From: Candidatus Micrarchaeota archaeon
GTDB lineage: Archaea > Micrarchaeota > Micrarchaeia > Anstonellales > Bilamarchaeaceae
DNA length: 64,000 nt
Direction of reading: 5' to 3'
Assembly (NCBI GenBank): GCA_038046805.1
Contig: JBBSVO010000001.1
Coordinates: 453-64,452, forward strand
Shown here piece by piece: positions 15,769 to 32,400 of this stretch; the stretch's first letter is position 1, and each line of letters starts with the position of its first letter. The translations under genes were made by a program, and so were the position numbers. The notes beneath the pieces are model-generated. The model had not been told where the DNA came from, made no database searches, and was given only the letters and a program-made list of their open reading frames with translations.

Positions 15769-16476
15769 TTACCATTTATAGTTTTTCTCCGCAAGATCAC
15801 GCATTGATTTTATTTTGTCTTTATAATTTGAAGAAGTCGCATCTTTTGTAAAAAGACCGGTAGTACCACCGATAAATATATTTGCGCCTTCAGCAGCAAG
15901 AAGCGGGATTGTCTCTCCACCAACATGCCCATCAACTGAAATATCTGGATGAAAACCCTGCTCTTTGAGAGTCTTAACGAATTTGGACATTTTCGGAAGA
16001 ACATCAGGACGGAATTTCTGGCCCATGTCCCCTGGTCTTGTTGCCATGAAAAGGATTTCATCCACCAAATCCAGGCAATCAAAAAGAATGGTCATTGGAG
16101 TTTCAACATTGAGCGCAACACCGGCATTGATTCCATGATCTTTTATTTCACGGAGGGCATAATCCGGGTTTTTGCAGCCCTCGGCATGGAAAACAATGGT
16201 GTTCACACCGGATTCTGAAAGCCTGTGAAGATAACGCGCAGGCTCATATGCCATAAGATGTACGTGAAGGGGTAGCTTAGTGGCCTTTCGTATGGAATCG
16301 ATCTGCCAAAAATTAAGGGCAAAATTCTGGACAAATGAGCCATCCATAATGTCCACATGGAATGAATCAGCACCGGCTGCTTCAAGTGATTTTATCTCAT
16401 TCCCAAGGTTAAGCCAATCAGCGCACATTAGGGAAGCAGATACTTTGACACTATGATCATTGGAAATTGAAGCCAT
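15769..16476 (-). CDS. ribulose-phosphate 3-epimerase family (Rpe/AlsE-like)
   Basis: SASLMCAD, HVDIMDG, HVHLM, SVDGH, GTTGLF. Confidence 0.88.
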   Translation of the reverse strand: MASISNDHSVKVSASLMCADWLNLGNEIKSLEAAGADSFHVDIMDGSFVQNFALNFWQIDSIRKATKLPLHVHLMAYEPARYLHRLSESGVNTIVFHAEGCKNPDYALREIKDHGINAGVALNVETPMTILFDCLDLVDEILFMATRPGDMGQKFRPDVLPKMSKFVKTLKEQGFHPDISVDGHVGGETIPLLAAEGANIFIGGTTGLFTKDATSSNYKDKIKSMRDLAEKNYKW

Positions 16477-16540
16477 ATGGTATAATATGATGGCGTTTTA
16501 ATTTAAAAAGTAAAGGTTCGGGGCCGAAACCAAGGAAGAA

Positions 16541-18973
16541 CTAGGATTGCACTTTGAATGTCAGGACGCTGTAGATAGACGTACCGCCTTCTGAAAACAC
16601 ATTTTTTAGATTGTATTCCTCAATAAACCATTCTGCTGGAAGCTCCCCATTCTCAAAAACAAGGTATTCCGGGGCATAACGCGGAATATAATTGAATGCG
16701 ATTTCTTTTTTTGCAGTTGTATCCAGATTGATTATTGTTGACGGGTCAAATGAATTCATCGAAGAAATAAACTCGCGCTCGCGCACGAAAAAATTATCTT
16801 CTTTAAATAGTGAAAAATAATCTGCGTATGCAAATGTTTTGTTGCTGGTTTCTGCTGCAGTTGAAAACGAATTCATAAAACGCGACCAGGTCTTGTTTGA
16901 GATTGTCTGCGGATCAACAACCGCAAGGTAAAAATTGAGCGTGTCGGTTGAACGTGTTATATAATCCGATTGCATCAGGATTCCCTTTGGTTTGTGTTGT
17001 TCAACAACAGCTTGCCTTCCAGATATCGCAGTGCGGATAATACCTGATGGATACCAGGACGAAGGGGCAGCCCTACCAACCGAATCTGCAAATTCGTATT
17101 GCCTTCCAAAAAGGATTACAGAGTCTTTTTGAGTTGCCGTATTCAGATAGTTAAGCGCATTGATGAGCGATTTGTCATAGAATGCCCAGCTGAAAAGAAC
17201 TGTATTTGGACAGCACCCCTGCCCCTTGAATGAAGCAGCAAACGAGACAGTATAGAGATTAACCAGAGTTACTGGATTTAACATGCCAGAAGTCCCGGAA
17301 GCACCGGACCAGGTAAAATCTGCTGACGGGACATAGATAAGAAATGCACTCGCAGCACTACTTATGAAAAGAACTGCGGTAAGAACAATGGTAGGAATTT
17401 TCTGAAGAATGCCTGTAGATGAAAGCCACCTAAACAGAAAAACAATTCCAATAAGAAAACCAGGCACTGCAAACTGATAATTGTTGTTTTCCGTAACTTC
17501 CACTAAGAAAACGCTTAGAATCAGGCTAAAAAAGATACACGCATCCAAAAGGATCGAATCTTGTGAAAATAAGGGTGAAATTGAAATTTCAGAAGAACTT
17601 TTTCTAAATCCAAGGACCATTGCAAGCGAAGCAAAGGATTTTGTCAGGAAAGATACTGCACCTGAAAGAACAAATGGAAGTGCAAAACCAAATAAAAGAA
17701 CCAGAGTAGCAACCAGTGAAATTAATGGAAATAGAATCAGCAGGATCCCACTTATTTGAGATGCTGAAGCAGTGAGCTTGAAAAATCCTGGGAAAAAAAT
17801 CCAGAGATTATGCGGGTGCGCACCACCCATAAAAACCAGAATATAGACTATGAGCGGAACAAAAACAATAAGCGGCTGGACGAAAGGTTGAAACGAGCGC
17901 TCGCGCATGGAATAAAACACGGAAACCCCAAGTACGGCAAGAATAACCGGAATTGCGATAGCAGTTTTTGTAAGTGCAAGTGCCAGAATGAAGAGATATT
18001 GAACTGGAGTTAAGGAAAACGAGCTTTCTTTAACGGTTTTGTCATCTTTAGGAGTTTTGGCTCTATGACCAGTAAGTAAAAACCCGAGCACGAGCGAGAA
18101 ACCAAGTCCAAAAGAAGACATAAATGTCAGGCGCGAAAGCAATGCGTGTTGGGGGAAACCAAGAATCACCTCCAAAGGAAGAAACAGAAGTGATGCGAAT
18201 AATGCTGTGAACGTAGCCGCAAGCGCAGCCCTCGAGGAATTTGTAACTCTAAGGGCAAAGGAATAGAACAGAACTAAAAAAACCAGAATAAAGATAATTG
18301 GAAGAACGACATAAACCGATGTAAGAGAAGGAATATTGAATGTGTTTTCCAGAAGATAGATCAAAACAGGCGCACCAAAATTATACCTGAGGTCCTTCCC
18401 GTTATAGGAAAGATCCTTTGTATCCGGAAGCCATGAAAGAGATTTGGAATTACTGATTTCATAGGTTCCGTGAAGCGCGTCCTTGAGATAAAGACCGTCG
18501 GTGGAATATATAATATTCCCGGAAATCAGAAATACTGCGGCAATATAAAATATGGAAAGCGCAGTAAACTGCGTAGAACCAAGGAAGGAAATGTCTGGTT
18601 TACAGATGGCTAAATTCTTGCGCACGAACAAAAGATAAAGTGCAGTGATTGAAACGGTAGCGAAAAACAGATAAACAACTGTTAAAAGATCAGATATGAC
18701 AAATCGTGCGAGAATAAAGAAGATTATGAATAGAGATGTGCCGAGAAGAAATGAAATGGCTGCTCCAAAAAACGGACAGGAAGAGACTTTGTCCTCGCTC
18801 CGCAAAAAAGACCAAAAAATTGCACCTGAGATGATAAAAAGGATAAAAAAAGCAAGAGAATTGAAGAAAACTTCTATGGAATCAATAATTAAATATGAAA
18901 GCGAGAGAGCAGATAATAACAGAAATATATTAAGGCAGATAATAAACAGATTTGAATTTTGTTTTGCGAACAT
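16541..18973 (-). CDS. polytopic membrane protein, possible GT-C-type glycosyl/polyol-phosphate transferase
   Basis: 810 aa, >12 hydrophobic helices, first loop with D..H and LRYNFG, soluble C-terminal domain; adjoins sugar cluster. Confidence 0.55.
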   Translation of the reverse strand: MFAKQNSNLFIICLNIFLLLSALSLSYLIIDSIEVFFNSLAFFILFIISGAIFWSFLRSEDKVSSCPFFGAAISFLLGTSLFIIFFILARFVISDLLTVVYLFFATVSITALYLLFVRKNLAICKPDISFLGSTQFTALSIFYIAAVFLISGNIIYSTDGLYLKDALHGTYEISNSKSLSWLPDTKDLSYNGKDLRYNFGAPVLIYLLENTFNIPSLTSVYVVLPIIFILVFLVLFYSFALRVTNSSRAALAATFTALFASLLFLPLEVILGFPQHALLSRLTFMSSFGLGFSLVLGFLLTGHRAKTPKDDKTVKESSFSLTPVQYLFILALALTKTAIAIPVILAVLGVSVFYSMRERSFQPFVQPLIVFVPLIVYILVFMGGAHPHNLWIFFPGFFKLTASASQISGILLILFPLISLVATLVLLFGFALPFVLSGAVSFLTKSFASLAMVLGFRKSSSEISISPLFSQDSILLDACIFFSLILSVFLVEVTENNNYQFAVPGFLIGIVFLFRWLSSTGILQKIPTIVLTAVLFISSAASAFLIYVPSADFTWSGASGTSGMLNPVTLVNLYTVSFAASFKGQGCCPNTVLFSWAFYDKSLINALNYLNTATQKDSVILFGRQYEFADSVGRAAPSSWYPSGIIRTAISGRQAVVEQHKPKGILMQSDYITRSTDTLNFYLAVVDPQTISNKTWSRFMNSFSTAAETSNKTFAYADYFSLFKEDNFFVREREFISSMNSFDPSTIINLDTTAKKEIAFNYIPRYAPEYLVFENGELPAEWFIEEYNLKNVFSEGGTSIYSVLTFKVQS

Positions 18974-19004
18974 AACATCACGTCCAGTAACTAGAAGCTA
19001 GCCC

Positions 19005-19997
19005 CTATTCCTGACTTGCCTTCCATGCATCGCTGGTATCTTTTCCTACAACGTCGCTTATATAGTTTTTGAATTTGGAATCAGATATGGCCTTAGTGGT
19101 TTTTTCAAATTCCTTGTCAATAAGCAGGAAAATTGAGCCATAATCATTGAAATCAAATCCATAATATTTACAGAGGAGGAATGGCGCCTTTGCAAAACTG
19201 AAAATAGACTGATCACAGGCAGTAGATACGGGTTTAAAGTCGCCATCCGTCGTTCCATTACCACCCCAGTTTCCGCTTATGTGGAATGAAATTGCCTTTG
19301 CAAACTGCTCCTGGATATTGTAAGAAACCGTTGTGCGCTTGTAAAACATAACATGCACGGCCTCATGAACAAATAAAAGCTGGTCCTGGATGCGGAGTGC
19401 ATTTTCCTCGTTGAAAGGAAGAATCCGGTTTTTCTTTTCGTAATCAAATGTGCAAATATGCGCTGTGCCATAGTCGGAACCACTGGAAATCAGATAAAAA
19501 CCGGTGGACTCGTTGGTAGCCTGACCACAAGTGGTATCGCCATTAAGATGAACGCGAATTGGCTTAACCCCATCGGTAAAGTCTACAGACAAAAGTTTCT
19601 TGAGTTTATTTACTGCGGCCGTCATTCCCTTGTGCTTTGCAATCAAGGTTGAACGTGGGATTGGACAGGGTCTTTCACACACTGTGCGGATGTCACCGTC
19701 ATCATCAGAAATCATAAAGGAGTAAGTATCATCCGTGATTATCTTCAGCCCTTCGTTGCCAAAAACTTTTTTCTCGGATACGTTGAATGTATTGTTCGAA
19801 ATAGCGGAGTCAGACAAATTATTTTTTTCTAATTGATTCTGGAGAGGAAGTGGATTTGGAGAAATTAGATTGGAAACCGGATTTTGTAAAGAAGAATCCG
19901 ATTTTTCTTTTTCCTGTGGTGACAGACAACCGAAAAGCGCGAGAGAGAGCACGACAAAAACAATCAATATTATGATGGGGATTTTCATATGTATCAC
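19005..19997 (-). CDS. lipoprotein-like zinc metallopeptidase (gluzincin-like)
   Basis: Signal peptide ending LFGC; FVHEAVH followed by IQEQFA. Confidence 0.6.
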   Translation of the reverse strand: MIHMKIPIIILIVFVVLSLALFGCLSPQEKEKSDSSLQNPVSNLISPNPLPLQNQLEKNNLSDSAISNNTFNVSEKKVFGNEGLKIITDDTYSFMISDDDGDIRTVCERPCPIPRSTLIAKHKGMTAAVNKLKKLLSVDFTDGVKPIRVHLNGDTTCGQATNESTGFYLISSGSDYGTAHICTFDYEKKNRILPFNEENALRIQDQLLFVHEAVHVMFYKRTTVSYNIQEQFAKAISFHISGNWGGNGTTDGDFKPVSTACDQSIFSFAKAPFLLCKYYGFDFNDYGSIFLLIDKEFEKTTKAISDSKFKNYISDVVGKDTSDAWKASQE

Positions 19998-20023
19998 GAG
20001 GCCATATTTTCAGTTTCATAAAC

Positions 20024-20612
20024 CTAATTAATCAATGCTGCAGTAATAGTGATGACTAAATTGAATAAATCAATGAAAGATAAAAGGGTTACCCCAATTA
20101 TATAAAGACAAAGAAGCAGGTAAGCTGCGACGCGAATAAAGGAGACGGATTTTGATTTGTAAATAGAATAAAAAAACTCGGAAAGGAGTATTGAAAAGAA
20201 GAAAAATATAAAGTAGGAACATTGGTATAAGAACAACTTCGGTTACGGTTCGGATTAAAGAGCCAATAACAAAAAACACTGTAAAAAGAAGAAGTGTTAA
20301 AGCAGCAAAGTTAGATGCAACGAGCTTGAATTCTTGGTCTATTGTATTAAATCTAGTTAGTTTTAGGATAATAAAAGAAACCAATACAAATGGAATAATA
20401 AACTGACCAAAGGAACCAAAAAGGCGAAAAAGAGAGTCTTGAGATACAACAGGATATGACACAAGAAGTTGACTCAATAAAATAAAAATTGCAAAGAAAA
20501 ATGGTTTTTTGAAAAAGCCTTTATACGCATTTTCTATAAGCAATGTGATCAAAGGAGCCAGATATGGTGCTAATATCCCACCACTATCTGGTCGCATATT
20601 TTTGCTAGCCAT
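20024..20612 (-). CDS. AT-rich membrane protein, possibly frameshifted
   Basis: Two overlapping hydrophobic ORFs (20070-20612 and 20024-20236) that join at T-runs near 20170-20206. Confidence 0.45.
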
Positions 20613-20615
20613 ATA

Positions 20616-21239
20616 TTATAGAACACACACAGATTTAATAAAATATTCGTGAAACGCGGTTGTTGAAAGTTCGGGATGAAATGTTGTCGCAAGATAGAAA
20701 TTCCGGCCCACTCGCTCGGAAACTGCAACTATTTCGCCATTAGCCCGCTTTGCAAGGACTTCACAAGTGACCCCTGCTTTTTTTATTTTGGGAGCGCGAA
20801 TGAAAATTGCGTCCAGAATTCGAGGCGTTGTTTTGTCTGCCCCGAGTCGCACGTGTATCTTTTCTTCAAACGACTCTGTCTGCGAACCGTACGCATTTCT
20901 GTCCACCTCGATATTCATAATGCCAAGTGAATCCTGACCCCCATCTTCCTGCCCGAAAACTTTTTTTGCAAGAAGAATTGCGCCGGCGCAGGTCCCAAAA
21001 ATATTTGGAATTGAACGGATCTCGTCCCAGCAATTTTCCCTAGTTATAAGACGTGAAAGAACTGTGCTTTCTCCACCAGGAATGATAAGCGCATCCAGCT
21101 CCACGAGTTCTTTTTTTCGTTTCACTGCAACAACTTCGCATTCACCACGCCCGATGGCTCGCACTGCATTTATCGTCGCAGAAATGTGTTCGGAAACACC
21201 ACCCTGAAATGAAAGCGCGCCAATTTTAATCTTTTTCAT
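20616..21239 (-). CDS. pdxT: pyridoxal 5'-phosphate synthase glutaminase subunit
   Basis: QGGVSEH, PGGESTV, GTCAG, RNAYGSQ, FIRAP, FHPEL. Confidence 0.95.
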   Translation of the reverse strand: MKKIKIGALSFQGGVSEHISATINAVRAIGRGECEVVAVKRKKELVELDALIIPGGESTVLSRLITRENCWDEIRSIPNIFGTCAGAILLAKKVFGQEDGGQDSLGIMNIEVDRNAYGSQTESFEEKIHVRLGADKTTPRILDAIFIRAPKIKKAGVTCEVLAKRANGEIVAVSERVGRNFYLATTFHPELSTTAFHEYFIKSVCVL

Positions 21240-21402
21240 AAAAAAATCTCCGAGGTTAAATACCTAAACGAGTGAAAAACCTCCGAAAAATGCGTTAAAA
21301 AATCAAATTCCTGAAAAAAATCACGACGAAGAATTTTTCTTCTTGATAACCTTTAAAAGCATTATTTTTATTAATGAATGCAAATAAGAGGAAAAGATCA
21401 AA

Positions 21403-21828
21403 ATGAATGGATTGATACATCTGCATTTAACGGTCAACGCGCGAATAAGCCCGAAATTTTCCGAGCTTCCGAAAGATGCGGCACAGCAATTTGTAAATGA
21501 ATTGCTCCGCACCGTTGGGATGAAGCCTTTGGGCCAGCTGCAATGGGCAGACGCCGTGGACCTGGATTTCCCGGGGCAAAGCATGGTTCAGATGATAACG
21601 ACTAGCCACTGCTCACTACATTTCTTCGCCCACACTGATGGAACAAATGAAATATACTTTGATTTGTATTCCTGCAAGCCATTTGACACAAACAAGGTTA
21701 TTGATGTCCTTGACAAAAAATTCGGGCTTGAGGAATGGCACGGAGTATTATATCATAGGGCGACTGGCAGCGCACCCAAGGTCAAAACACTTACCGGAGA
21801 GAAAAATTCTCTGGTAATGAGGGCGTAA
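21403..21828 (+). CDS. S-adenosylmethionine decarboxylase-like proenzyme (class 1B fold)
   Basis: GQSMVQMITTSHCSLH..YFDLYSCKPFD. Confidence 0.72.
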   Translation: MNGLIHLHLTVNARISPKFSELPKDAAQQFVNELLRTVGMKPLGQLQWADAVDLDFPGQSMVQMITTSHCSLHFFAHTDGTNEIYFDLYSCKPFDTNKVIDVLDKKFGLEEWHGVLYHRATGSAPKVKTLTGEKNSLVMRA

Positions 21829-21858
21829 AACATTTTTTCTTATTTTGATTTTTTCTTT

Positions 21859-22509
21859 TCATCTATCAAAATATGTGGTTGCACCAATGGTCACGTCACA
21901 CACCAACACACCATTGGTTTTTATACATGAACGCCTGTCCTTTGCATATAGTGACATCAACCGATCTTTCAGTTCATTAAAAACAGAAGAATTTTGAGAC
22001 ACCCGAACGTCCCATGAAAAGATTATCGCATCAGCATTGAGAGTATCCAATTGCTCGGAAATATTTTTATCACAGCTTAGCTCGACGTATAAAGAACCAT
22101 CGGAAATATCCGTGTTTACAGGACGACACATGATTGGATATTTATTGAGAAGAGTAAATGATGTGCTGGCCTTTTTTGAGAGATATATCTTTGGCCAGCT
22201 GTCAAACGTTGATAAAAAAACGTGCCCTCCCTGTGCTTCAAGCGAAAGAACTATGCGATCATCGGAATGAACATCGAAAAATTTGCACCGGACGATATCC
22301 TGTGGCCAACAGGTCGTAAGCGACGATTGCGTGAAATAAACACTGGTGAGTAAAATATACGATAGCACTATAATTGAAAGGATTGGAACGATTAAAGATC
22401 TGATAGTGAAGCCGGCATTTGACATGAGAAAAAATAACAATATAGGTTTAATTATATTCGCTACAAAGAAAAAATATGGAAAAGAAAGAGGAATGTGGGG
22501 TAGCAGCAA
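21859..22509 (-). CDS. hypothetical membrane-anchored protein
   Basis: N-terminal TM then Cys-containing domain; true start probably near MSNAGFT (~22425). Confidence 0.5.
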   Translation of the reverse strand: MLLPHIPLSFPYFFFVANIIKPILLFFLMSNAGFTIRSLIVPILSIIVLSYILLTSVYFTQSSLTTCWPQDIVRCKFFDVHSDDRIVLSLEAQGGHVFLSTFDSWPKIYLSKKASTSFTLLNKYPIMCRPVNTDISDGSLYVELSCDKNISEQLDTLNADAIIFSWDVRVSQNSSVFNELKDRLMSLYAKDRRSCIKTNGVLVCDVTIGATTYFDR

Positions 22510-23885
22510 TATTCTCGAAAAAAGGGAAACAGATCACCCACCATATTTACCATATGTTAATTGCGCTTCAGCACCGCGGACAGGATGCGGCCGGGATTGC
22601 AATCTGGAATGGAAAAAATCTTGTTATTAAAAAGGGCCTTGGCCTTGTGACAGAAGTTTTCACGGAAAACGACCTGAATTCATGGGCATTGGCAAACGGA
22701 ACCATGGGTATAGGCCACACAAGATATCCGACAACAGGCAGGTGTCTTCCAGTAGACGTGCAACCGATAATCCACCAGAATATAGCAGTAGCGCACAATG
22801 GCCATATAGCAAACTATCACGAAGTCAGAAAAGAACTGGAAAGAAGCGGTTATGAATTCAAAAGTACAGTTGATTCCGAACCGATCGCATTCCTGCTGCA
22901 TGAAAAAGAAGGGGAGGGAGAACGCAAGGCAGTCAAAAATGCAATGGATGTGTTAGATGGATCGTATTCTGTTGTTTCTATATTCAAAGGTAAGCTCTTA
23001 GTTTTCCGGGATCCGCATGCATTAAGGCCACTAGTATGGGGAGAAAACGAGGATTTCGTATGTTTTGCATCTGAAAGCGCAGCGTTGGACATAATTGGGG
23101 TGCCACACTGCGGAACAGTTGACGGTGGAACCATGCGAGTCGTAGATGTTGATGGGACCAAGGAAGCCACAATAAAAAAGAGTGAAACAAAGAATTGTAT
23201 GTTTGAATATGTCTATTTTGCAAGGCCAGACTCGATAATAAATGAAAAATACGTGTATGAGATAAGAAAAAGGCTTGGGCAGATTTTGGCAAAGGAACAT
23301 CCGGTCAAGGCGGATGTGGTTGTTCCGGTTCCGGATACTTCAAGAACAGCTGCCGAAGAGTTTTCAAAAGAAACAGGAATCCCGATTGAAGAGGGACTCA
23401 TAAAAAACAGATATATTGGAAGAACATTCATAATGCCCACACAGGATAAACGGGCGTATGCTGTAAGAGTAAAATTAAACACAATAAAAAAGATACTTGA
23501 AAACAAAAGAGTCGTGCTCGTGGATGATAGCATCGTGCGCGGGACAACACTACGCGAGATTGTACGGATGGTTCGGGAAGCAGGTGCAAAGGAAGTGCAT
23601 CTGCGGATAACCTGCCCTCCTCTAAAGGCACCGTGCTTTTACGGGGTGGATATGTCAACGTACGAAGAGTTGATAGCAGGACACAAGACGGTTGATGAAG
23701 TGAAAACGTTTATGGGTGCAGATAGTTTGGGTTATGTTTCAATCGACGGATTAACGAAAGCAATAGGGCTTCCGATATGCACGGGCTGCCTTAATGAGGA
23801 TTATCCTACAGAAACTGCAAAAAGACTGGCAAAGGAGAGAAAAGGAAGTAAAACTAAAAGTGGTGAAAGAGATGGCTGTGGTTGA
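22476..23885 (+). CDS. purF: amidophosphoribosyltransferase
   Basis: EECGVA, QHRGQDAAG, VLVDDSIVRGTT, PCFYGVDM. Confidence 0.96.
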   Translation: MEKKEECGVAAIFSKKGKQITHHIYHMLIALQHRGQDAAGIAIWNGKNLVIKKGLGLVTEVFTENDLNSWALANGTMGIGHTRYPTTGRCLPVDVQPIIHQNIAVAHNGHIANYHEVRKELERSGYEFKSTVDSEPIAFLLHEKEGEGERKAVKNAMDVLDGSYSVVSIFKGKLLVFRDPHALRPLVWGENEDFVCFASESAALDIIGVPHCGTVDGGTMRVVDVDGTKEATIKKSETKNCMFEYVYFARPDSIINEKYVYEIRKRLGQILAKEHPVKADVVVPVPDTSRTAAEEFSKETGIPIEEGLIKNRYIGRTFIMPTQDKRAYAVRVKLNTIKKILENKRVVLVDDSIVRGTTLREIVRMVREAGAKEVHLRITCPPLKAPCFYGVDMSTYEELIAGHKTVDEVKTFMGADSLGYVSIDGLTKAIGLPICTGCLNEDYPTETAKRLAKERKGSKTKSGERDGCG

Positions 23886-25512
23886 ATTTGATATTAATGA
23901 TCTGAAAAAAATGTGCATGGGAATTAGTGAAGAAAAGCTTGTTGAGACCCTTACAAATATCGGAGCACCATGCGAAATCGCAGACGGGGATGGAACAGAC
24001 AGCGGCAGAGCTGGCGAAAAAAAGAAATTGGTTGTTGAAATAACACCGAACAGGCCGGACTTTTTCTTTATAGAGGGTTTGGCAAGAGCAGTCAATACAT
24101 TCCAAAAGAGAAAACCGAGAGAGTATGTGGCAAAAAAAAGCGAATACGTCGTAATTGTTGATGCGTCAGTAAATAAAATCAGACCATGCTCATTATGCGC
24201 AGTTGTGAAGGACCTGAGCCTGGATGCGAGAAGAATTGACTATCTTATTCAAGCGCAGGAAAAACTCATGACGACAATAGGTAGAAAGACAAGAAAGTTC
24301 GGAATGGGATTCTTTGATTTGAAAAAAATCACGTTCCCGATAAAATATACCACACGAAAGCCAGAGGAAATAGTATACAGGCCGCTTAATTACCCAAAAA
24401 CCGCAAATGCAAGGGAGATTCTGGCCAAACACCCGAAAGGGATTGAAAACGGATATATAATAGAAAAATTTGACAGATACCCGCTTTATGAGGACGCGAA
24501 TGGAAGGATTCTTGTATTTATTCCGATTGTAAACTCTGATGAATGTGGGAAGATAGACGAGCAAACCACCGATGTTTTCATAGAAGTAACGGGCACTGAT
24601 ATGCGTGTAATGGAACAAGTACTGAATATCGTAATCTGCAGCTTAATCGACATGGGAGGCACAGCACATTCAGTTGAAATGAGATATCCAGATAGGAAAT
24701 TCCAGTCACTGGGGGGGCTGGTGAAATGGGAGATGGAACTCGATATTGAATCTGCTAACAGAACGCTTGGTTTGGAGTTGGATAAAAAAGAGATTGGAAG
24801 GCTTCTGGCAAAAATGGGCTATAAAACTACAGGTAAAAAAGTGATGGTACCCCCGTATAGAATGGATATTATGCACTTCGTAGATATTGTTGAGGATATC
24901 GCAATTGCATACGGATATGAAAAATTCGAGCCTGTACTTCCGGACTTTTTTACAAGTGGAAAAACCATTGGAAAAACTGAAAAAAAGATTGATGACGCAT
25001 TAAAGGGAATGGGCTTCATGGAAATAGTATCCCCGATTCTCACAAGCCCGGATTCAATAAAAAGCATTGGAATGAAGCAAAGTGAAAGTGCTGAAGTAAA
25101 AAATTCAAAAAGTGAGGAGTTCAGCATAATCCGGCCTTCGCTTGCATTGAGCATTATTGAATGTTTTGCGCGAAACAAAACAAAAGGATTGCCACAAAAG
25201 TTTTATGAGATAGGAGATATATTCGATGATGGGGAACTGGAACGCACCATGATATTTGCAGTGGCAGATAAAAATACGAGTTTTGCAGACATACGTGGAT
25301 ATGCACAAACGCTTTTCGATGAGGTCGGACTGGGATTGAAAATAGAAAACAGAACTTCAGAACAAAGCAGCGGATTAATGGATGAAGAAAAAAGCGGGGT
25401 AATAGTAATTGGGGAAGAAGTACGCGGAAGGATTGGATTGGTAAATGAAGAAATCCTGAAGCGATTTAATTTACAGAGTAAAGTCGCAATATGCGAGATC
25501 ATGTTGGATTAG
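23872..25512 (+). CDS. pheT: phenylalanyl-tRNA synthetase beta subunit (archaeal type)
   Basis: VEITPNRPD, EGLARA, VPPYRMDIMH..DIVEDIAIAYGY. Confidence 0.93.
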   Translation: MAVVEFDINDLKKMCMGISEEKLVETLTNIGAPCEIADGDGTDSGRAGEKKKLVVEITPNRPDFFFIEGLARAVNTFQKRKPREYVAKKSEYVVIVDASVNKIRPCSLCAVVKDLSLDARRIDYLIQAQEKLMTTIGRKTRKFGMGFFDLKKITFPIKYTTRKPEEIVYRPLNYPKTANAREILAKHPKGIENGYIIEKFDRYPLYEDANGRILVFIPIVNSDECGKIDEQTTDVFIEVTGTDMRVMEQVLNIVICSLIDMGGTAHSVEMRYPDRKFQSLGGLVKWEMELDIESANRTLGLELDKKEIGRLLAKMGYKTTGKKVMVPPYRMDIMHFVDIVEDIAIAYGYEKFEPVLPDFFTSGKTIGKTEKKIDDALKGMGFMEIVSPILTSPDSIKSIGMKQSESAEVKNSKSEEFSIIRPSLALSIIECFARNKTKGLPQKFYEIGDIFDDGELERTMIFAVADKNTSFADIRGYAQTLFDEVGLGLKIENRTSEQSSGLMDEEKSGVIVIGEEVRGRIGLVNEEILKRFNLQSKVAICEIMLD

Positions 25513-25526
25513 GGGGCAACGGACAA

Positions 25527-26657
25527 ATGCTCAAAAATATTACGAATAATGGATTCACAAGACTTGTTTTGATTTTCGTATTCTGGATGGCGATAGCAAA
25601 GCTCATGGCAGAGATGTTTGATTACAAGTACCTTGTGGATGGCGGATTTGACATCGGACTTTTGATGCTGCTTACGATTGTAGAATTCGCAGCACCTGCA
25701 CTGCTTGCAGCAATAATAAAACAAAATGAATCCAAAAAATTCGTGATTATTGGAGCAGCAATCAGAATAATCGCATTCCTCGCACTCATTTATTGGAAGG
25801 GACTGCCGGGGGCAATGATTTACTTCATTCTCACGAGCCTCACGAATGTTTTGTTTTGGGTTCCATTCAATATTGCATATTTCAGGAAACAACACGAAAG
25901 AAGCGCGTTTGTAAGTGCAGTATATTATAATGTCGGGCCAATGCTTGGAATTGTTCTTCCGGTATTGGGAGGGGCATTGATAGAAGGAGTTAGTTTTGAA
26001 AGTTTATTTCTTCTTATGGTGGCTGGGTATATCCTCTGGCTTATAAGTGTGATAAAATTCTGGCCAGATGAAAGACAAGACATAGACATACGTGCGGAAC
26101 TAAAAAAATTAAAAGGAATGAAAACGCTTCTTTTTGCAGAAAGCGGATATGCATCAGCAGCAATGCTCGGAATCCCGTTAGTGACAATTCTTTACTTTCA
26201 GAAACCAAGCGAACTCGGGCTCGTTGCGTCCGCAATGTCAATAGTAGCGGTTGCATTTTCGTTCATGTTCGCGAAAATCTCGGATAAAACCAAAGAACGG
26301 ATGAAATATCTTGTCCCATTCGCAATATTCTTAGGTTTGGCAATGATTGCAAGCGTGCTGGCATACGATGCAGTCACCTGGTTTGTTATACTCGTGATTA
26401 TGACTATAGGAAGGGTATTGTTCTTCCCGTTCACAACGACAATCCTGATGGATAACCAACAAAAGCCCGAAGAGGTAATGTACGGACGAGAACTCGTTCT
26501 AAATGTCGGAAGGGTGTTTTGGATGGCAGTAATATATATTATATATGCGACAACCAACAGTCTTCAGATAGGAATCGCAGTGTGTGGATTGGGAATGATC
26601 ATATATCCATTTGCGGCACGATTAAAGGAGAAAGAAGGACATATTGAATTGTCTTAA
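25527..26657 (+). CDS. MFS transporter
   Basis: ~12 TM helices, FAKISDKTKER loop motif. Confidence 0.8.
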   Translation: MLKNITNNGFTRLVLIFVFWMAIAKLMAEMFDYKYLVDGGFDIGLLMLLTIVEFAAPALLAAIIKQNESKKFVIIGAAIRIIAFLALIYWKGLPGAMIYFILTSLTNVLFWVPFNIAYFRKQHERSAFVSAVYYNVGPMLGIVLPVLGGALIEGVSFESLFLLMVAGYILWLISVIKFWPDERQDIDIRAELKKLKGMKTLLFAESGYASAAMLGIPLVTILYFQKPSELGLVASAMSIVAVAFSFMFAKISDKTKERMKYLVPFAIFLGLAMIASVLAYDAVTWFVILVIMTIGRVLFFPFTTTILMDNQQKPEEVMYGRELVLNVGRVFWMAVIYIIYATTNSLQIGIAVCGLGMIIYPFAARLKEKEGHIELS

Positions 26658-26731
26658 GACGCGCCCACAGCTCAAGGCCCACGGCCCGGGGCAGGCCAAG
26701 GATTTTAATCCACACCTTATTATACTGCACC

Positions 26732-27358
26732 ATGTCAGACATGCTCGCAGATTTCGAACTTCTTAAAAAATATGGGATTCCGCTTTTGCCATACCATATC
26801 GCGAAAAGCGAGAGCGAAGCATTAGAGTCCGCGAAAAAAATTGGCTACCCGATTGTGCTGAAAATCGTTTCTCCAGAGATAGAGCATAAAACGGATGTTG
26901 GGGGGGTAAAGATCGGGATAAAAACCGAAGCGATGTTGCGAATTGCATATAAAGAACTTGTTGAGAATGCAAACGGGCGACGGCTCACCGGCATCCTTGT
27001 TCAAAAAATGGCAAGGAAGGGAGTGGAGCTTATTATAGGCGGAAAAAAAGATGAACAGTTTGGACATATGGTGGTGTTGGGTTTAGGAGGGGTGTTTGTC
27101 GAGGTTTTCAGAGACATAACTGCAAGAGTTTGCCCAATAAAGGAAGCAGATGTGCGCGAGATGATAACAGAACTAAAAGCACACCCGATAATTACCGGCA
27201 CGCGTGGCAGAAAACCAATTCATATCAAATCATTGTGCGATATTGCGATAAAGACGTGTAAGATGATGCACGAGAATAATATTTCTGAGATAGACATAAA
27301 CCCGGCGGTATTTGATGAAAACGGGTGTGATATAATCGATGTAAGGATAATTAGATAA
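26732..27358 (+). CDS. acdB: ADP-forming acetyl-CoA synthetase beta subunit (ATP-grasp)
   Basis: IGYPIVLKIVSP..HKTDVGGV, GLGGVFVE, DINP. Confidence 0.9.
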   Translation: MSDMLADFELLKKYGIPLLPYHIAKSESEALESAKKIGYPIVLKIVSPEIEHKTDVGGVKIGIKTEAMLRIAYKELVENANGRRLTGILVQKMARKGVELIIGGKKDEQFGHMVVLGLGGVFVEVFRDITARVCPIKEADVREMITELKAHPIITGTRGRKPIHIKSLCDIAIKTCKMMHENNISEIDINPAVFDENGCDIIDVRIIR

Positions 27359-27377
27359 ACGAACTTAGATGTGGTGG

Positions 27378-28787
27378 ATGAAAAATATGCGCGACCTTGT
27401 AAAAAACCTGAAATATGTTTTCGAACCGTCATCCGTTGCGATTATAGGGGCAAGCAACACGCCAAACAAACTGGGAAATGTATTGATGAAGAATTTTACT
27501 GAAGGCGGGTTTGAAGGAAAGGTTATCCCAGTAAATCCAAAATACGAAACAGTCTCTGGAAAAAAATGTTACCAGACAATTACGAGCGTATCTGGAAGGA
27601 TAGATTGCGCAATAATCGCAACACCAGCCGAAACAGTTCCGCAGGTTCTTGAAGAATGTGGAAAAAAAGGGATACGAGGCGCCATTGTTTTAAGCAGTGG
27701 ATTTGGCGAAAGCGGTAAAACAGATTTGGAGAATAAACTGCGCGAAGCTGCGGAACGGAACGATATCGCGTGTATTGGACCGAACTGCCTTGGCGTGCTT
27801 AACCCATACAACCACGTAGATAGCATATTCCTTCCGATGTACAAGATGGAAAGACCAAAACCAGGTTCGATTTCTTTCATAACGCAAAGTGGGGGAGTCG
27901 GCACGTGTATTGTTGATGTTGCAGCACATTATAGCGTCGGATTCTCGAAATTTGTATCGTATGGAAATGGCGCAGTGATTAATGAGATAGATTTGTTGGA
28001 ATATTTTATAGAAGATAAAAAAACAGAGGAGATCGTGCTTTATTTAGAGGGAACTAAAGATGGCAGAAGGCTTTTGGAAGTTATGAAATGGGCGAACAAA
28101 GAGAAACCGATAATTGCACTAAAGGCCGGGAAATACGGCGGGGCGTTGAAAGCTGCGAAATCCCACACTGGAAATCTTGCTGGGAATTACACTGCGTATA
28201 AAGCAGCATTCCGACAGGCAAAGATAACCGAAGCTGAAAGCCTTGATGAATTATTTAATTTTGTGAAGATATTTCGTCAACCACTCCCAAAAGGACGAAG
28301 AATAATGGTAATAACAAATGGAGGGGGGTTGGGAGTTCTTGCCGCAGATGCGATGGAAGAGAATGGATTGATGCTTGCAGAACCAACTGAGGAAACGTTG
28401 AAAAAATGCAGCGCAGCAGTTCCTTCATATGCGACGGTATCGAATCCGCTGGATATGACTGCAGATGCGACAGTTGAGGGGTATGCGACAGTAATCGATG
28501 CTGTGATGGATGATGAAAATATCGATGGTATTATACTTATGGCATTGCTGCAGACGCCAAATCTAGATGAGAGGATGTTAGACGTGCTTATCAAGGCATC
28601 AGATGATAGAAGAAAACCAATTGTTGCAGTAGCAGTTGGCGGGACATATACCGATGCTAAACGAAAAATCCTTGATGGTCGTGGTGTACCGACGTATGGC
28701 GCGCCATTCGCAGCAGTACGCGCAATGAAAAAATTCTGTGAATATTCTTTGACGAGTAATTGTAAGAAGTGTGTTGTGAAAAGATAG
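27378..28787 (+). CDS. acdA: ADP-forming acetyl-CoA synthetase alpha subunit
   Basis: SVAIIGAS, GPNCLG, TQSGG, SHTGNLAG, NGGGLGV, NPLDM. Confidence 0.92.
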   Translation: MKNMRDLVKNLKYVFEPSSVAIIGASNTPNKLGNVLMKNFTEGGFEGKVIPVNPKYETVSGKKCYQTITSVSGRIDCAIIATPAETVPQVLEECGKKGIRGAIVLSSGFGESGKTDLENKLREAAERNDIACIGPNCLGVLNPYNHVDSIFLPMYKMERPKPGSISFITQSGGVGTCIVDVAAHYSVGFSKFVSYGNGAVINEIDLLEYFIEDKKTEEIVLYLEGTKDGRRLLEVMKWANKEKPIIALKAGKYGGALKAAKSHTGNLAGNYTAYKAAFRQAKITEAESLDELFNFVKIFRQPLPKGRRIMVITNGGGLGVLAADAMEENGLMLAEPTEETLKKCSAAVPSYATVSNPLDMTADATVEGYATVIDAVMDDENIDGIILMALLQTPNLDERMLDVLIKASDDRRKPIVAVAVGGTYTDAKRKILDGRGVPTYGAPFAAVRAMKKFCEYSLTSNCKKCVVKR

Positions 28788-28891
28788 CACTGAAACCCGA
28801 GGAGACCCGAAACCACTAAACTAGTGGGGGGTCATAATTCCACTAATTATGTTTAAAATAAAAAACAAAAAAAGGAAAAGAAAAATATATA

Positions 28892-28911
28892 AATGTAACC
28901 ATGGTTACATT
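28892..28911. promoter_or_regulatory. perfect 20-bp palindrome just downstream of a TATA-like box (operator-like)
   Basis: AATGTAACCATGGTTACATT following aaaaatatataaa. Confidence 0.7.
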
Positions 28912-28915
28912 AAAA

Positions 28916-29293
28916 ATGAAAAGAAATGAAAAACTATTAAATAAAAAAATACCAAACAAAAAATCAGGAACAACAAAAAATCCAAGATCTAAACAAAAAA
29001 ATACAACAAAAAGAAAAAGGAGAACAACAAGGGAAACCAAAAAAACACAACACACAACCCAAATTCTTTACCTTTACGACGTAAAATGCAAAGTTAAGGA
29101 CTATAATCGCCTGAAACGTGTTTTCTATTATCGCTTCAACAAGCTCGGGCTCGGCAAGCTTGCATGGAAATCAAAATCTGCACTTCTTGTTCCTTTGTAT
29201 ATGGAAAATCTAGCTGATAATTTCTTTCATGGTTTCAAAGGCTGTGTTGAAGTGTATAAAGTGGAACTCATTTCCATTACCCGACTCCACTAA
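28916..29293 (+). CDS. small basic protein, Lys-rich N-terminus and ferredoxin-like (Cas2/PaaX-like) C-terminal domain
   Basis: LYLYDVK..RLKRVFYY..LGL..SALLVP..FF..VEVYKVE; probable leaderless start at 28916 (alternative 28901). Confidence 0.6.
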   Translation: MKRNEKLLNKKIPNKKSGTTKNPRSKQKNTTKRKRRTTRETKKTQHTTQILYLYDVKCKVKDYNRLKRVFYYRFNKLGLGKLAWKSKSALLVPLYMENLADNFFHGFKGCVEVYKVELISITRLH

Positions 29294-29333
29294 GTAAATT
29301 TAATCCCATTTTTGTCACTAAGTAAATTTAATC
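29288..29333. repeat. 18-bp perfect direct repeat, 2 copies, 28-bp period
   Basis: cactaagtaaatttaatc at 29288-29305 and 29316-29333. Confidence 0.85.
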
Positions 29334-29481
29334 TTAATTTCTCAACCCTTCTGGTATTTTAATCCTGAAAGAATACTCGAACAATGACCCCTCCCCACTA
29401 TCATACAACACTCTATTTCTTTACCACATTTCTTCCCAGGATTAAAGGAACCTTTATAAATCTATTTTTAATAAGCCTAAC

Positions 29482-32400
29482 ATGAACGAACGCTTTGTGT
29501 TATTTTTGGCACTGTCTTTGGTTTTATCCGGCTTGATTTTTGCCGACCTGTCTGTTTCTGCCCCGTATGTTGGCAAGATGAACGAATCCTTTAACTTCAC
29601 AGGTACATTTACTAATTCATCTGGCTCAGCGCAAGCTAATGTTAACGTATCAATTAACGTCAGTGGGCACGTTTATTCCGGCGTGACTGGTTCTGACGGT
29701 ACATTTTCTATTGCAACAAATGCTTCCAACACTACTGGCAACAGCACGATATATACATCAAGCAATGGTTCTTCAACTGCCTATACTTTCATTGAATATG
29801 TTACAAATGTGACAAATGTTACCTTCACATTCAACAGCACCACAACTACTTTTAGTGCAGGCACATCCTTTATCGTCAACCTCACCTTACTCAATGGAAG
29901 TGCTGCAGTTGCAAGCTATTTCCCAATGGTTTATGTTTACAAGGCAAACGGCGAAAGGCAATCATGGATGCTGAGAAATCTATCTGCGGTAACCGATTCC
30001 AATGGTGTTATTCAATATAATATTACAATTCCATCAGATGCAGTTGGCATCTTCTTCATTTCTGTTGAACACGGTAGAGGTATACAGCAGATCTCCACCA
30101 AATATGATGCAATAGACTTTTTCATCGGTTCAAACAACAACGGCAGTGTTTCAACCTCAACATTCGGTCAGGGTGCAACCGTGGAGCTTTTCTCAAAGCT
30201 TCTTGATAATAATGATTCTGCAGTAAGCAACGCTTCAATCCGCGTTTTTGTAAAAAAGCCAGATGGAAACTACACAAACTACACTCTTACAGAGCAGGAT
30301 GAGAACAATTTTTCAGGTTACTATAATTCTTCCTATAACAATACATCCACAATCGGAACTTACGAAGTAGAAACATACACATCATCAAACGGAGTGACAA
30401 TCAGAAGAGCATTCACATTCTCAGTAAGCCCGATTTCAATCTCCCTTGTTTCAGATACAGAAAGTGATAAGATGTTTGAATTCGGTGGCTTCAGAGGCGC
30501 AAGGCCAGGAAGTGAGGCATCGTTTTTCCTTGTGGTTGAAAATACCTCCAATGGAAACATGCTCAATGCAACTGCCAACGGAGTCAATGGCCAGGTAAAC
30601 TGTTCTAAAATAGCACTGGTTGATTTTGTGAGAACTGCCAATTCAACCTCTTACAAAGGCACCATAACCTCTTCGTTCAGTGCAACAAATGTTGATACTT
30701 TCTTTAGTGGCGCCCAAACCTGTCTTGTCAATTTCACAAGCCCGTCCGATACGGGGGTTTACAGGCTTGCAATAAGATTGGAATACTCTGGTACAAATTA
30801 CACTGCAAATGGTTATGTTCCTCTTCAGAAATATGTCCTTAGTATAATGCCACAACAGACTACTGCTGGTGGGGGCACTGGTGGTTTCGGCGGCGGTATG
30901 GGCATGGGCGGCGGCGAAATGGGCCCATCTGGCTTTATGTACAAACCTGGTTCAAATATTACCTTCAAAGTTCTTGCATATGATGTTAACGGAACCCAGA
31001 TTTCAACAATATCCGGCATTTCAGTTGTCAGACTCAGAAATCTTCCGACAGCAACTATTTTCCAACCGTCCAACAGCTCTACTCCGGGTACTGGTTACTT
31101 CAGGGCAATCTCAAGTGATGACACAGATACAGTTTCAATCCAGATTCCGGAAAACTATTCAGACATGTTCTCTCTTGAAGTCCAGGCAACCAATGTCAGC
31201 AATGATCTTGCACTGGGAAGTGGATATGTAATGGCAAAATGGATCATGGGCTTCCTTAATCCAAAAGTTAGTTGGGGTGGTGGTTATGGTATGGGCCCAA
31301 TGGGTGGTGGTGACGTCAGATGCACAAATGGCGTTAACTTTACCGGTGACGTCCGCCTTGCAGAAACTGGGGAAACTGCGAGCGGGGTCGTACTTCGTTC
31401 GGTGCCGACAATGCTTATTCAGGAAGATACTGGTCAAAGCGTAAGGAATTGCTTTACCTTTAATACTACTCAGAGCACGAATTCATCCTGGAACAATATC
31501 AATACCACGGCAACTTTCAATACTTCCTGCCATTCATGGGGTGGGGAATATTTCGGCCTGGCAAATGTGACTTATACCGACCCTGACGGAACATCGCATT
31601 CTGACGGCATACCATTCTTCATGAAATGCTCCAATATCCGCGGCAATGTTGATATGCGGGGAACAAGCGGCAACTGGAAGGTTGGTGGTTTAGAAGGAAT
31701 CAACATTTCAATTACTAATGCAGAATACACTAATGGAACATCACTTACAAGCGGTTCACTTTCTGTTCAGAGCATGGTCTCATTTGGCCAATACTTTGGT
31801 CCGCCAGAATTCATTTCTCCGTCCGCAACACTTAATTCATCGATAGTTGGTGGAAGTGCTAATCTTGTGATATACTCATCAAACTTCTCAAAAGCAACCT
31901 GGGCAGATGATGATACATTTGTTGATTTCAGGCTGAGATTCTGCGATACTTCTGGTATATGCGACACAATGCGACGAGGACTCATGGTCGGCGGTAATAA
32001 GCCCGACATGTGGTGGGACTTCTGGGGTGTTCAGGGTTTTAGCTGGCCAACTACAGTCTCTCCAGGAACAAGATTGTCGCTTATATTCCGCATAAAAAGC
32101 AATCTTACTGAGACGAACAATACCGGGACCCAGGGAACCAACATCACAGTGACCTTTGAATCAATGGGTATGGGTAACTCAATAAAGGCGACCCATGAAA
32201 ACAATTCCACGAGAATATCCGACGATTGGAACAGCTCCATAGATGGCACAGGCGAGTTATGGATGGTTAATGTAACCGTTCCAAACGGTCTTGCAAAAGG
32301 AGGAGTAAAGATAAAACTTCAGGTCAAAGACTACCTTGGAACAAAGATAACGACTGACATGTGGACGTCTGTTGCCGGAGTGCGTGTTTCAGTTGCTCGC

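Follow-up and report, generated by a model that had tools for sequence, protein, structure and literature searches.

The chromosomal replication origin (oriC) of Pyrococcus is described in PMC1904270 as a pair of inverted 34-bp origin recognition boxes (ORB1 and ORB2), accompanied by 13-bp mini-ORBs and AT-rich regions and bound by Cdc6/Orc1. ORB1/2 of P. furiosus are printed there as 'CCCCCC..TTCCACTGGAA', and the motif common to ORBs is given in PMC4164010 as 'TCCA-GAAAC' with a G-string 'GGGGT'. Haloarchaeal origins of the oriC1 type have ORBs that end in a G-string and are inverted around an unwinding element (PMC1868953, PMC3528665, PMC4010727), and the origins of Sulfolobus have distinct neighbouring initiators (PMC3607249), including a non-Orc1 factor that PMC4164010 names WhiP. 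In a genome of the Diapherotrites (DPANN), the origin predicted from skew lies beside cdc6 (PMC5905446). Here we describe a locus in a 64,000-nt stretch of DNA (the window) from a Candidatus Micrarchaeota archaeon, where two inverted ORB-like boxes, an AT-rich spacer, a palindrome and a small gene, together referred to below as the module, coincide with a switch in strand composition. We argue that this module is probably the chromosomal replication origin of the organism, canonical in cis and distant from orc1. In the papers covered by our literature search, no origin of this kind was found for Micrarchaeota or DPANN.

The window comprises bases 453-64452 of contig C1 of genome G000 (1.2 Mb in 16 contigs, 43% G+C, 86% complete), and its genes are archaeal (RadA, PheT, PurF and the subunits of an ADP-forming acyl-CoA synthetase among them); other G numbers designate related genomes, and L numbers public or related loci. 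Strand composition was measured as the purine excess of the + strand at third codon positions minus the genome-wide coding-strand bias (c=0.045), using crude gene calls (greedy open reading frames (ORFs) of at least 100 aa). An earlier, sequence-only reading of the stretch had described the + strand as purine-rich to the left of the locus and pyrimidine-rich to its right. This is what the genes show: 25 of the 28 on the left are purine-positive (mean r=+0.136) and 23 of the 32 on the right are negative (mean r=-0.083; leaving out the 1492-aa gene that directly follows the locus gives -0.063). When all positions are counted, purine content is 0.531 over 1-28787, 0.573 over 16000-28787 and 0.488 over 29482-64000. 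The shift is common to genes of the + and - strands, and it is therefore not an effect of gene orientation or transcription.

The same reading had proposed following the cumulative third-position skew across the contig. On C1, this curve reaches its maximum after the gene ending at 29293, within the interval 28788-29481, and none of 10,000 permutations of gene order matched the observed deviation, with or without the 1492-aa gene (p<=1e-4). Removing that gene, which is itself very strongly enriched in pyrimidines at third positions (-0.18), leaves the change point at the same boundary between genes. Elsewhere in the genome, contigs C2, C6, C9 and C13 are negative throughout and C3 and C7 are positive, and the opposite skew extremum is a plateau at about 40-85 kb on C4. 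Since the contigs are consistently signed and the opposite extremum is found on C4, G000 has a strand asymmetry of the replication type with two main switch points, the locus being one of them.

A search of relatives for the same motif and gene arrangement, also suggested by the earlier reading, showed that the module recurs, and that in five further genomes belonging to four families (G015, G031, G029, G033 and G032, relatives that are mutually non-independent) it lies at an extremum of skew. Genes longer than 1200 aa were removed from the curves of relatives throughout, because such genes have huge biases of their own. G015 is a single complete contig of 1,571,539 bases, in which GC skew at third codon positions (GC3) describes two arms of about 773 and 798 kb, with a minimum near 55-75 kb and a maximum at 846-866 kb; the module occupies 865.5-866.3 kb. 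In G031 the GC3 maxima fall at 493.8-497.1 kb and the module at 497.6-498.3 kb, in G029 the maximum is at 116,880 and the small gene at 117,137, and in G033 (G033:C3; loci L155-L159 and L179-L187) a V-shaped minimum at 118.9 kb accompanies the gene at 115.1 kb, so that the distance between module and extremum is 0.3-4 kb in these three genomes. The extremum expected of an archaeal origin is thus present in G000, G015, G031, G029 and G033, and in G032 the rise stops at 96 kb (gene at 96,461) and is followed by a plateau to about 200 kb. The module marks a GC3 maximum in four genomes (G000, G015, G031 and G029) and a minimum in G033, a relative with 28% G+C, which means that replication skew has changed sign within the order. 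In G015, 20 genes exceed 1500 aa (the largest 13,676 aa; examples lie at 337404-378431, 310666-330843, 1399728-1424693 and 4-24177), and their extreme strand bias dominates the raw cumulative skew; a 3987-aa gene with a value of -0.39 is located about 8 kb left of the module of that genome.

A misassembly or an inversion breakpoint, which the sequence-only reading had named as possible causes of the switch, can be dismissed, since five other genomes have the same single-copy module at an extremum of skew. Judged from this comparison of genome sequences, the switch is a true landmark of replication, either an origin or a terminus, and neither an assembly error nor an inversion private to G000.

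The dense set of repeats noticed earlier at the locus is indeed there, in the form of direct repeats, an inverted repeat, a palindrome and five CCACTA/TAGTGG words in 620 bp (Table 1). The expected number of these words is 0.13, and they form the densest such cluster in the genome, the runner-up having 3. Both ORB-like elements carry the core TTCCACTA and a G- or C-string. When scored with a 34-nt matrix built from 21 sites in 11 relatives (G000 being excluded), the left element is the best match in the whole 1.2-Mb genome and the right one the second best, the next unrelated match reaching 17.2 bits, and the genome has no inverted pair TAGTGGGG..GGTCAT other than the one formed by these two. 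At least two inverted ORB-like boxes and an AT-rich element between them are thus found at the locus. The AT-rich spacer beside the left box is a candidate for the unwinding element and probably holds the promoter of the small gene. The palindrome next to it has no other match with at most one mismatch in the 1.2 Mb of G000. The sequence-only reading had called 28855-29050 almost pure A and had noted at the switch an AT-rich tract that could unwind. The segment is 67% A. This A-run is made up of the spacer and the opening 49 codons of the small gene, and most of it is coding sequence and not a free unwinding tract. These codons (28916-29062) encode an extension rich in Lys, Thr and Asn and precede a conserved domain of about 77 aa (29063-29290); the frame is open, with 0 stops in 49 codons compared with 2 and 3 in the other two frames.

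Table 1. Features of the locus and its immediate flanks, in window coordinates.
Feature	Position	Strand	Remarks
acdA partner, ATP-grasp subunit	26732-27358		ATP-grasp_5 3.6e-65
acdA-like ADP-forming acyl-CoA synthetase alpha subunit, left flank	27369..28787	+	Pfam Succ_CoA_lig 2.4e-48, CoA_binding_2, Ligase_CoA_2
Strand-composition switch point	28788..29481	.	Peak of cumulative third-position purine skew of C1, p<=1e-4
Dyad CCACTA-AAC-TAGTGG abutting the G-string (CCACTAAACTAGTGG)	28813..28827	.	Sole match to the dyad pattern in the genome
Left ORB-like element	28816..28849	-	Reads GGGGGG-TCATAA-TTCCACTAAT on the + strand; 26.6 bits
AT-rich spacer	28849..28891	.	43 nt, 70% A + 19% T (89% A+T)
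Perfect 20-bp palindrome AATGTAACCATGGTTACATT	28892..28911	.	Core TGTAAC-N4-GTTACA
Small gene, 125 aa	28916..29293	+	ATG at 28916
Direct repeats CACTAAGTAAATTTAATC, two copies	29288-29305, 29316-29333	+	Only two copies in the genome (<=3 mismatches); genome-specific
Inverted repeat TTTAATCCTG (29358-29367) / CAGGATTAAA (29437-29446)	29358..29446	.	10 nt, 100% complementary
Right ORB-like element, inverted, partly degenerate: AATACTCGAACAATGACCCCTCCCCACTAT	29370..29403	+	26.1 bits
Right flanking gene, 1492 aa, N-terminal hydrophobic segment	29482..33960	+	Weak MG2 match below cut-off; contributes -331 to the skew sum

The layout recurs around the small genes of relatives whatever their neighbours: a G-string separated by 5-8 nt from TTCCACTA(T/A)T, 25-41 nt of AT-rich DNA, the palindrome core, the gene, and A(A/T)TAGTGGAA-N4-GGGG(T)CCC. 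In three genomes outside the matrix (G031, G032 and G033), the top matches of the sampled contigs lie on either side of the small gene and are inverted relative to each other. Boxes of at least 12 bits were counted in 71 Micrarchaeota loci with at least 300 nt on both sides, some of them from genomes that were used to build the matrix: in the expected orientation, 40 loci have one upstream, 37 have one downstream and 36 have both, and those in the wrong orientation number 0 and 1. For the 27 loci in which both boxes reach 15 bits, the median inner length is 294 nt and the spacer of 25-41 nt is 68-100% A+T, a range that holds even at loci with 50-59% G+C. Of 77 related loci, 68 have the palindrome ahead of the small gene, and its half-sites are perfect in 42 of 74. 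A strict pattern of palindrome, 30-60 nt and box core occurs in 42 of the 121 genomes of the order, once in each (the two matches of G011 are the arms of one module), and the reversed pattern, used as a control, in none of the 121.

The small gene is not an obligatory part of this arrangement. G011 and G012 have a gene-less module of about 150 bp (box, AT-rich DNA, palindrome at the centre, AT-rich DNA, inverted box) directly after acdA/acdB, and in both genomes the small gene has been relocated together with a second copy of the palindrome and nothing else of the module. Because such gene-less modules exist, boxes, AT-rich DNA and palindrome make up a unit of their own, and the small gene occupies the module in most genomes, G000 included. 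The acdA-like gene precedes the module also in G015, G011, G012 and at loci L018 and L028, and an acdA/acdB neighbour is kept in at least six genera.

The sequence-only reading had also reported the absence of cdc6 from the 64 kb, and this extends to the whole contig: the Orc1/Cdc6 model TIGR02928 has no match above its cut-off on C1, and those that it has elsewhere are a full-length one on C3 and one on C6 that covers model positions 1-276 of 366. The initiator gene adjacent to the boxes, which is looked for at archaeal origins, is therefore missing here. In relatives that carry both on one contig, the main orc1 is 19.5-94 kb away from the module, and no inflection of skew was seen at the main orc1 in any of the five tested (G015, G031, G029, G032 and G033). 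The third-best box match in the whole genome of G015 (22.9 bits) stands 98 nt upstream of its main orc1. Within 1.5 kb upstream of the C3 orc1 of G000, no ORB-type repeat was found, there being only an unrelated imperfect inverted repeat of 31 nt. The paralogue on C6 (116852-117649, - strand) lacks a match to the C-terminal winged-helix part, and similar short orc1 paralogues exist in G015, G032, G018 and G030. Words of the types TAGTGGGG and TCCACTAA near the C6 paralogue were dropped as candidates, being inside coding sequence.

Homologues of the conserved domain of the small gene occur in 36 of the 41 related genomes, singly except in G010, which has a second, weak and partial match, and all 80 public loci encoding the small protein are labelled as Micrarchaeota or as of Micrarchaeia type. 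The 18 copies from relatives that were translated are all 76-81 aa long and lack the extension, which is shared by one 119-aa homologue, P0003. AlphaFold2 models based on 23 sequences give a beta-alpha-beta-beta-alpha-beta core with a predicted local distance difference test (pLDDT) score above 90 and a disordered tail. Foldseek places Cas2 and VapD nearest, with weak E-values, the top 10 PDB rows all being Cas2 (E 0.015-0.045, probability 0.96-0.99), and a wide structural search independent of Foldseek returned only generic ferredoxin-like folds, which it ranks on a par with Cas2 (Z 6-8; best Z 8.2 for a DUF3240 protein, with Cas2 at Z 6.8). An invariant Y-x-Y-D stands at the end of strand 1, and the catalytic Asp of Cas2 is likewise located at the end of strand 1. 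The small protein resembles Cas2 and VapD in size and topology. It differs from them in that the 23 members compared with Pfam and NCBIfam gave no match to Cas2, VapD or any consistent family at E<=1, nor a relevant PDB profile match, and in that Cas1 (PF01867) was not found in three carriers of the gene, G000 (86% complete), G015 (a single contig) and G031; in G029 and G032, PF01867 is present but not beside the module. The ESM Atlas gave nothing usable for this protein. A homodimer prediction with two copies of residues 48-125 (alignment A2) scored 0.37 against a mark of 0.42, with controls at 0.00-0.01, and counts neither way. The simplest idea is that the palindrome would be the binding site of a dimeric factor, perhaps the small protein itself, because it follows the relocated gene and is multi-copy in G032. 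Covariation between palindrome variants and protein residues was not obvious, the palindrome being too invariant for such a test.

How does the module compare with the origins described above? The following points are shared with Pyrococcus: 1) two long inverted boxes surround AT-rich DNA; 2) the core contains the word TTCCACT/AGTGGAA; 3) a G- or C-string lies a few bases from it; 4) short additional copies of the core are nearby, here as the CCACTA words; 5) the site is essentially unique in its genome and lies at an extremum of skew. The likeness of the half-core AGTGGAA/TTCCACT and of the G/C-string (GGGGt) to published ORBs was judged by eye against the sequences printed in the papers, and it does not extend to the second half of the dyad. 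The differences are these: the cdc6/orc1 gene is adjacent in Pyrococcus and on another contig, or tens of kilobases away in relatives, here; the core is a full dyad TTCCA-N-TGGAA there, of which one half is conserved here; the core-to-string spacing is about 10 nt there and 4-6 nt here; skew polarity is opposite in 4 of 6 genomes here; and a conserved palindrome, often with a gene, stands between the boxes here. As to the haloarchaea, an ORB-like sequence CAGCGGAAACAGTGGGGT published in PMC3528665 aligns with the right-hand consensus of our loci, AATAGTGGAAnTgnGGGGt, but haloarchaeal genomes have several origins with orc/cdc6 directly adjacent, compared with one module and no adjacent initiator gene here. 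Sulfolobus would offer a precedent for a small specificity factor encoded at the origin, and by analogy a model for the small protein binding the palindrome; there is however no homology, the protein here having a ferredoxin-like fold of about 77 aa and not being a winged-helix relative of Cdt1, and boxes of the Orc1 type are still present.

Because two inverted ORB-like elements with G/C-strings flank an AT-rich spacer, the cis architecture seems close to the classic archaeal layout and not really non-canonical. The sequence-only reading had proposed a non-canonical origin architecture; the part of it that stands is a real landmark lacking a nearby orc1/cdc6, and the part that does not is the layout in cis. 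What is unusual are the distance to orc1, the conserved central palindrome, the small gene between the boxes and, if the site is an origin, a skew polarity opposite to the Pyrococcus and bacterial rule.

We favour the reading of the module as oriC because inverted ORB-like boxes surround AT-rich DNA at a skew switch, both here and in relatives, and we regard it as the likely explanation. Orc1/Cdc6, encoded elsewhere (on C3 in G000), would bind to both inverted boxes by way of their TTCCACT/AGTGGAA core and G/C-string; the AT-rich spacer beside the left box would melt, MCM would be loaded and two diverging forks would leave the site. The palindrome would serve a dimeric factor, possibly the embedded ferredoxin-fold protein, and may also control the promoter of the small gene within the same AT-rich spacer. 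In G000, the small gene would have gained its Lys-rich N-terminal extension, giving rise to the long A-run. Apart from the resemblance of core and string to published ORBs, two weak hints of direction agree with this: 582 of 1045 genes of G000 are on the would-be leading strand, and in 4 of 6 cases the 23S rRNA or uL2 genes that share a contig with the module are directed away from it. At the opposite extremum the turn is broader, and neither box nor orc1 nor AT-rich intergenic region is present; a sharp origin opposite a broad termination zone is described for Thermococcus kodakarensis in PMC2958812.

Several observations weigh against an origin. The first is polarity. An origin at this site would give a leading strand that is rich in C (and in G000 also in T) at third codon positions, contrary to the rule in bacteria and Pyrococcus, for which P. 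abyssi is the reference (PMC4164010): the GC3 maximum means a leading strand with C>G in G000, G015, G031 and G029, and only G033 has the classical minimum. A leading strand rich in G and T is thus not what we find, and the classical rule would make the site a terminus. We give polarity less weight, since G033 shows the opposite sign at its own copy of the module. In addition, no orc1/cdc6 gene is adjacent to the module, adjacency being the usual criterion for archaeal origins as put in PMC3528665. A strong box occurs in only 1 of 30 orc1 upstream regions and a weak one in 3-4, the box keeps a single half of the canonical dyad TCCA..TGGA, and boxes were detected at only about half of the small-gene loci. 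The bias in gene orientation is significant in G000 alone, being non-significant in G015 (674/1293), G031 (164/312), G032 (146/291) and G033 (46/97), and its p-value in G000 is overstated because genes in operons are not independent. Finally, the interval between the boxes contains a protein-coding gene, the left box, able to form a hairpin past the end of acdA, could be no more than a terminator, and the proposal is built on sequence and skew.

The same polarity is the chief argument for a replication terminus, at which forks would converge, the inverted boxes acting as Ter-like polar fork barriers and the palindrome as a dif-like or decatenation site. In G000, G015, G031 and G029, the + strand has G>C at third positions to the left and C>G to the right, which by the bacterial and Pyrococcus rule means converging forks, and in G015 T>A goes with G>C in the classical keto pattern. 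A sharp switch would also be expected from a fork trap, tyrosine recombinase genes are present in G000 (3), G015 (3) and G031 (1), and archaeal dif sites, as presented in PMC2958812, occur at skew inversions with AT-rich conserved flanks. The palindrome resembles such Xer/dif sites in being a short conserved inverted repeat with AT-rich flanks, at a skew inversion and far from a recombinase gene. It departs from them in format, its 6-4-6 (or 7-6-7) arrangement being shorter than the 28-bp, 11-6-11 format of P. abyssi dif, and in copy number: dif is strictly single-copy, and the palindrome is present six times in 300 kb of G032 and twice each in G011 and G012. A dif role thus fits poorly, because several recombination sites on one chromosome would be harmful. 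The palindrome also persists where a recombinase was not found, PF00589 having no match in the 93% complete G032 and matching no more than a 43-aa fragment in the 97% complete G033, and no 11-6-11 candidate is shared by G000 and G015 apart from one low-complexity pair. Polarity, being inverted in G033 at the same module, is no fixed guide in this group, and the boxes resemble Orc1 sites, one of them standing in the orc1 promoter of G015. Moreover, a terminus here would require the origin to be at the other extremum, where no origin-like non-coding region was seen: C4 from 35 to 95 kb has one ORF-free gap of at least 250 nt (60% A+T), and the interval 20-130 kb of G015 has none. On balance a terminus is unlikely, and the module is better read as oriC.

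A third explanation would see a local regulatory module, comprising the promoter and operator of the small gene and terminators for it and for acdA, with the switch due to an old inversion breakpoint or to the 1492-aa gene. The palindrome does accompany the small gene at loci in which boxes went undetected (it is present in 68 of 77 loci, and boxes in 40 of 71), the left-box hairpin is followed by a T-rich run just past the acdA stop (the dyad can pair with 28840-28845, and a scan for terminator-like structures gives a stem at 28822-28845), and the 1492-aa gene alone accounts for about a third of the fall of the curve. The change point and its p<=1e-4 are nevertheless unaffected by removing that gene, the skew curve of G015 is a genome-wide two-replichore curve with nearly equal arms, and a promoter would not be expected to coincide with the skew extremum in five further genomes from four families. 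Gene-less modules, which keep boxes and palindrome with no gene between them to regulate, also speak against it, and we consider this explanation highly improbable. Least credible of all is a remnant of a captured mobile or extrachromosomal element, now origin or inert, for although the small gene is bounded by inverted repeats of about 30 nt in the manner of a miniature element, may be present or absent between them, and lies where many assemblies break within about 1.2 kb, the module is single-copy in all 42 genomes with the strict pattern, keeps the same acdA/acdB neighbour in at least six genera, contains no transposase or integrase and no visible target duplication, and has in six genomes a skew-extremum position that points to a fixed chromosomal role.

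Some further features of the locus and its relatives deserve mention. The inverted repeat TTTAATCCTG/CAGGATTAAA, upstream of the 1492-aa gene, was not seen in relatives and is possibly a regulatory element of that gene; the first copy of CACTAAGTAAATTTAATC starts inside TCCACTAA, an ORB-core-like word. A search of Rfam over 28500-29800 gave no match at E<=1. In G032, the palindrome in the form TGTAAC-TAT(A/G)-GTTACA has its six perfect copies, mostly intergenic, on C1 at 35751, 86169, 90965, 96446, 116016 and 202316 (loci L140-L154), and the skew plateau of this genome spans the copies at 96 kb and 202 kb. On C4 of G000, the ORF-free gap at 47188-47602 looks by eye more like a structured-RNA gene than an origin, and one of the three tyrosine-recombinase genes of about 410 aa, at 78368-78868 (+), lies inside the opposite plateau. 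In many draft assemblies, the small gene or module is found within about 1.2 kb of a contig end (G021:C8:924, G023:C1:1043, G025:C13:1211, G010:C16:12, G028:C30:584 and G030:C32:39, as well as L206, L207, L213, L215, L218-L220, L226, L232, L256 and L269), so that assemblies tend to break there; adjacent strain variation or repeats are possible causes. At L023 (G001:C50), from the same genus as G000, the small gene lacks the tail, and boxes and palindrome are absent within the limits searched; it adjoins an ORF whose product resembles, by eye, a TnpB-like protein of the IS200/IS605 type, suggesting that the locus was rearranged.

Taken further, and quite tentatively, the Micrarchaeota might have one fixed origin uncoupled from its initiator gene, with the palindrome bound by a tiny ferredoxin-fold, Cas2-like protein whose gene is, or once was, within the origin and which would be both an origin-binding or licensing factor and its own repressor, and with a reversed skew polarity (C-rich leading strand) that was flipped back in at least one lineage of low G+C. 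In that case the Micrarchaeota would be a natural system in which to learn what sets the sign of replication skew; we hold this full scenario to be doubtful.

Origin prediction tools, as described in PMC4164010 and PMC3528665, look for ORBs beside orc1/cdc6, and they would miss the module for that reason. If the module is the origin, it would give a precise oriC for a whole DPANN phylum, useful for estimating growth rates from metagenome coverage and for checking assemblies, and it would add a candidate new origin-associated protein. Origins of the ORB type would then be able to move as far as about 90 kb from the initiator gene. The polarity of GC skew could then not be read by the bacterial rule in this group, and genomes rotated to the skew minimum would start at the terminus.

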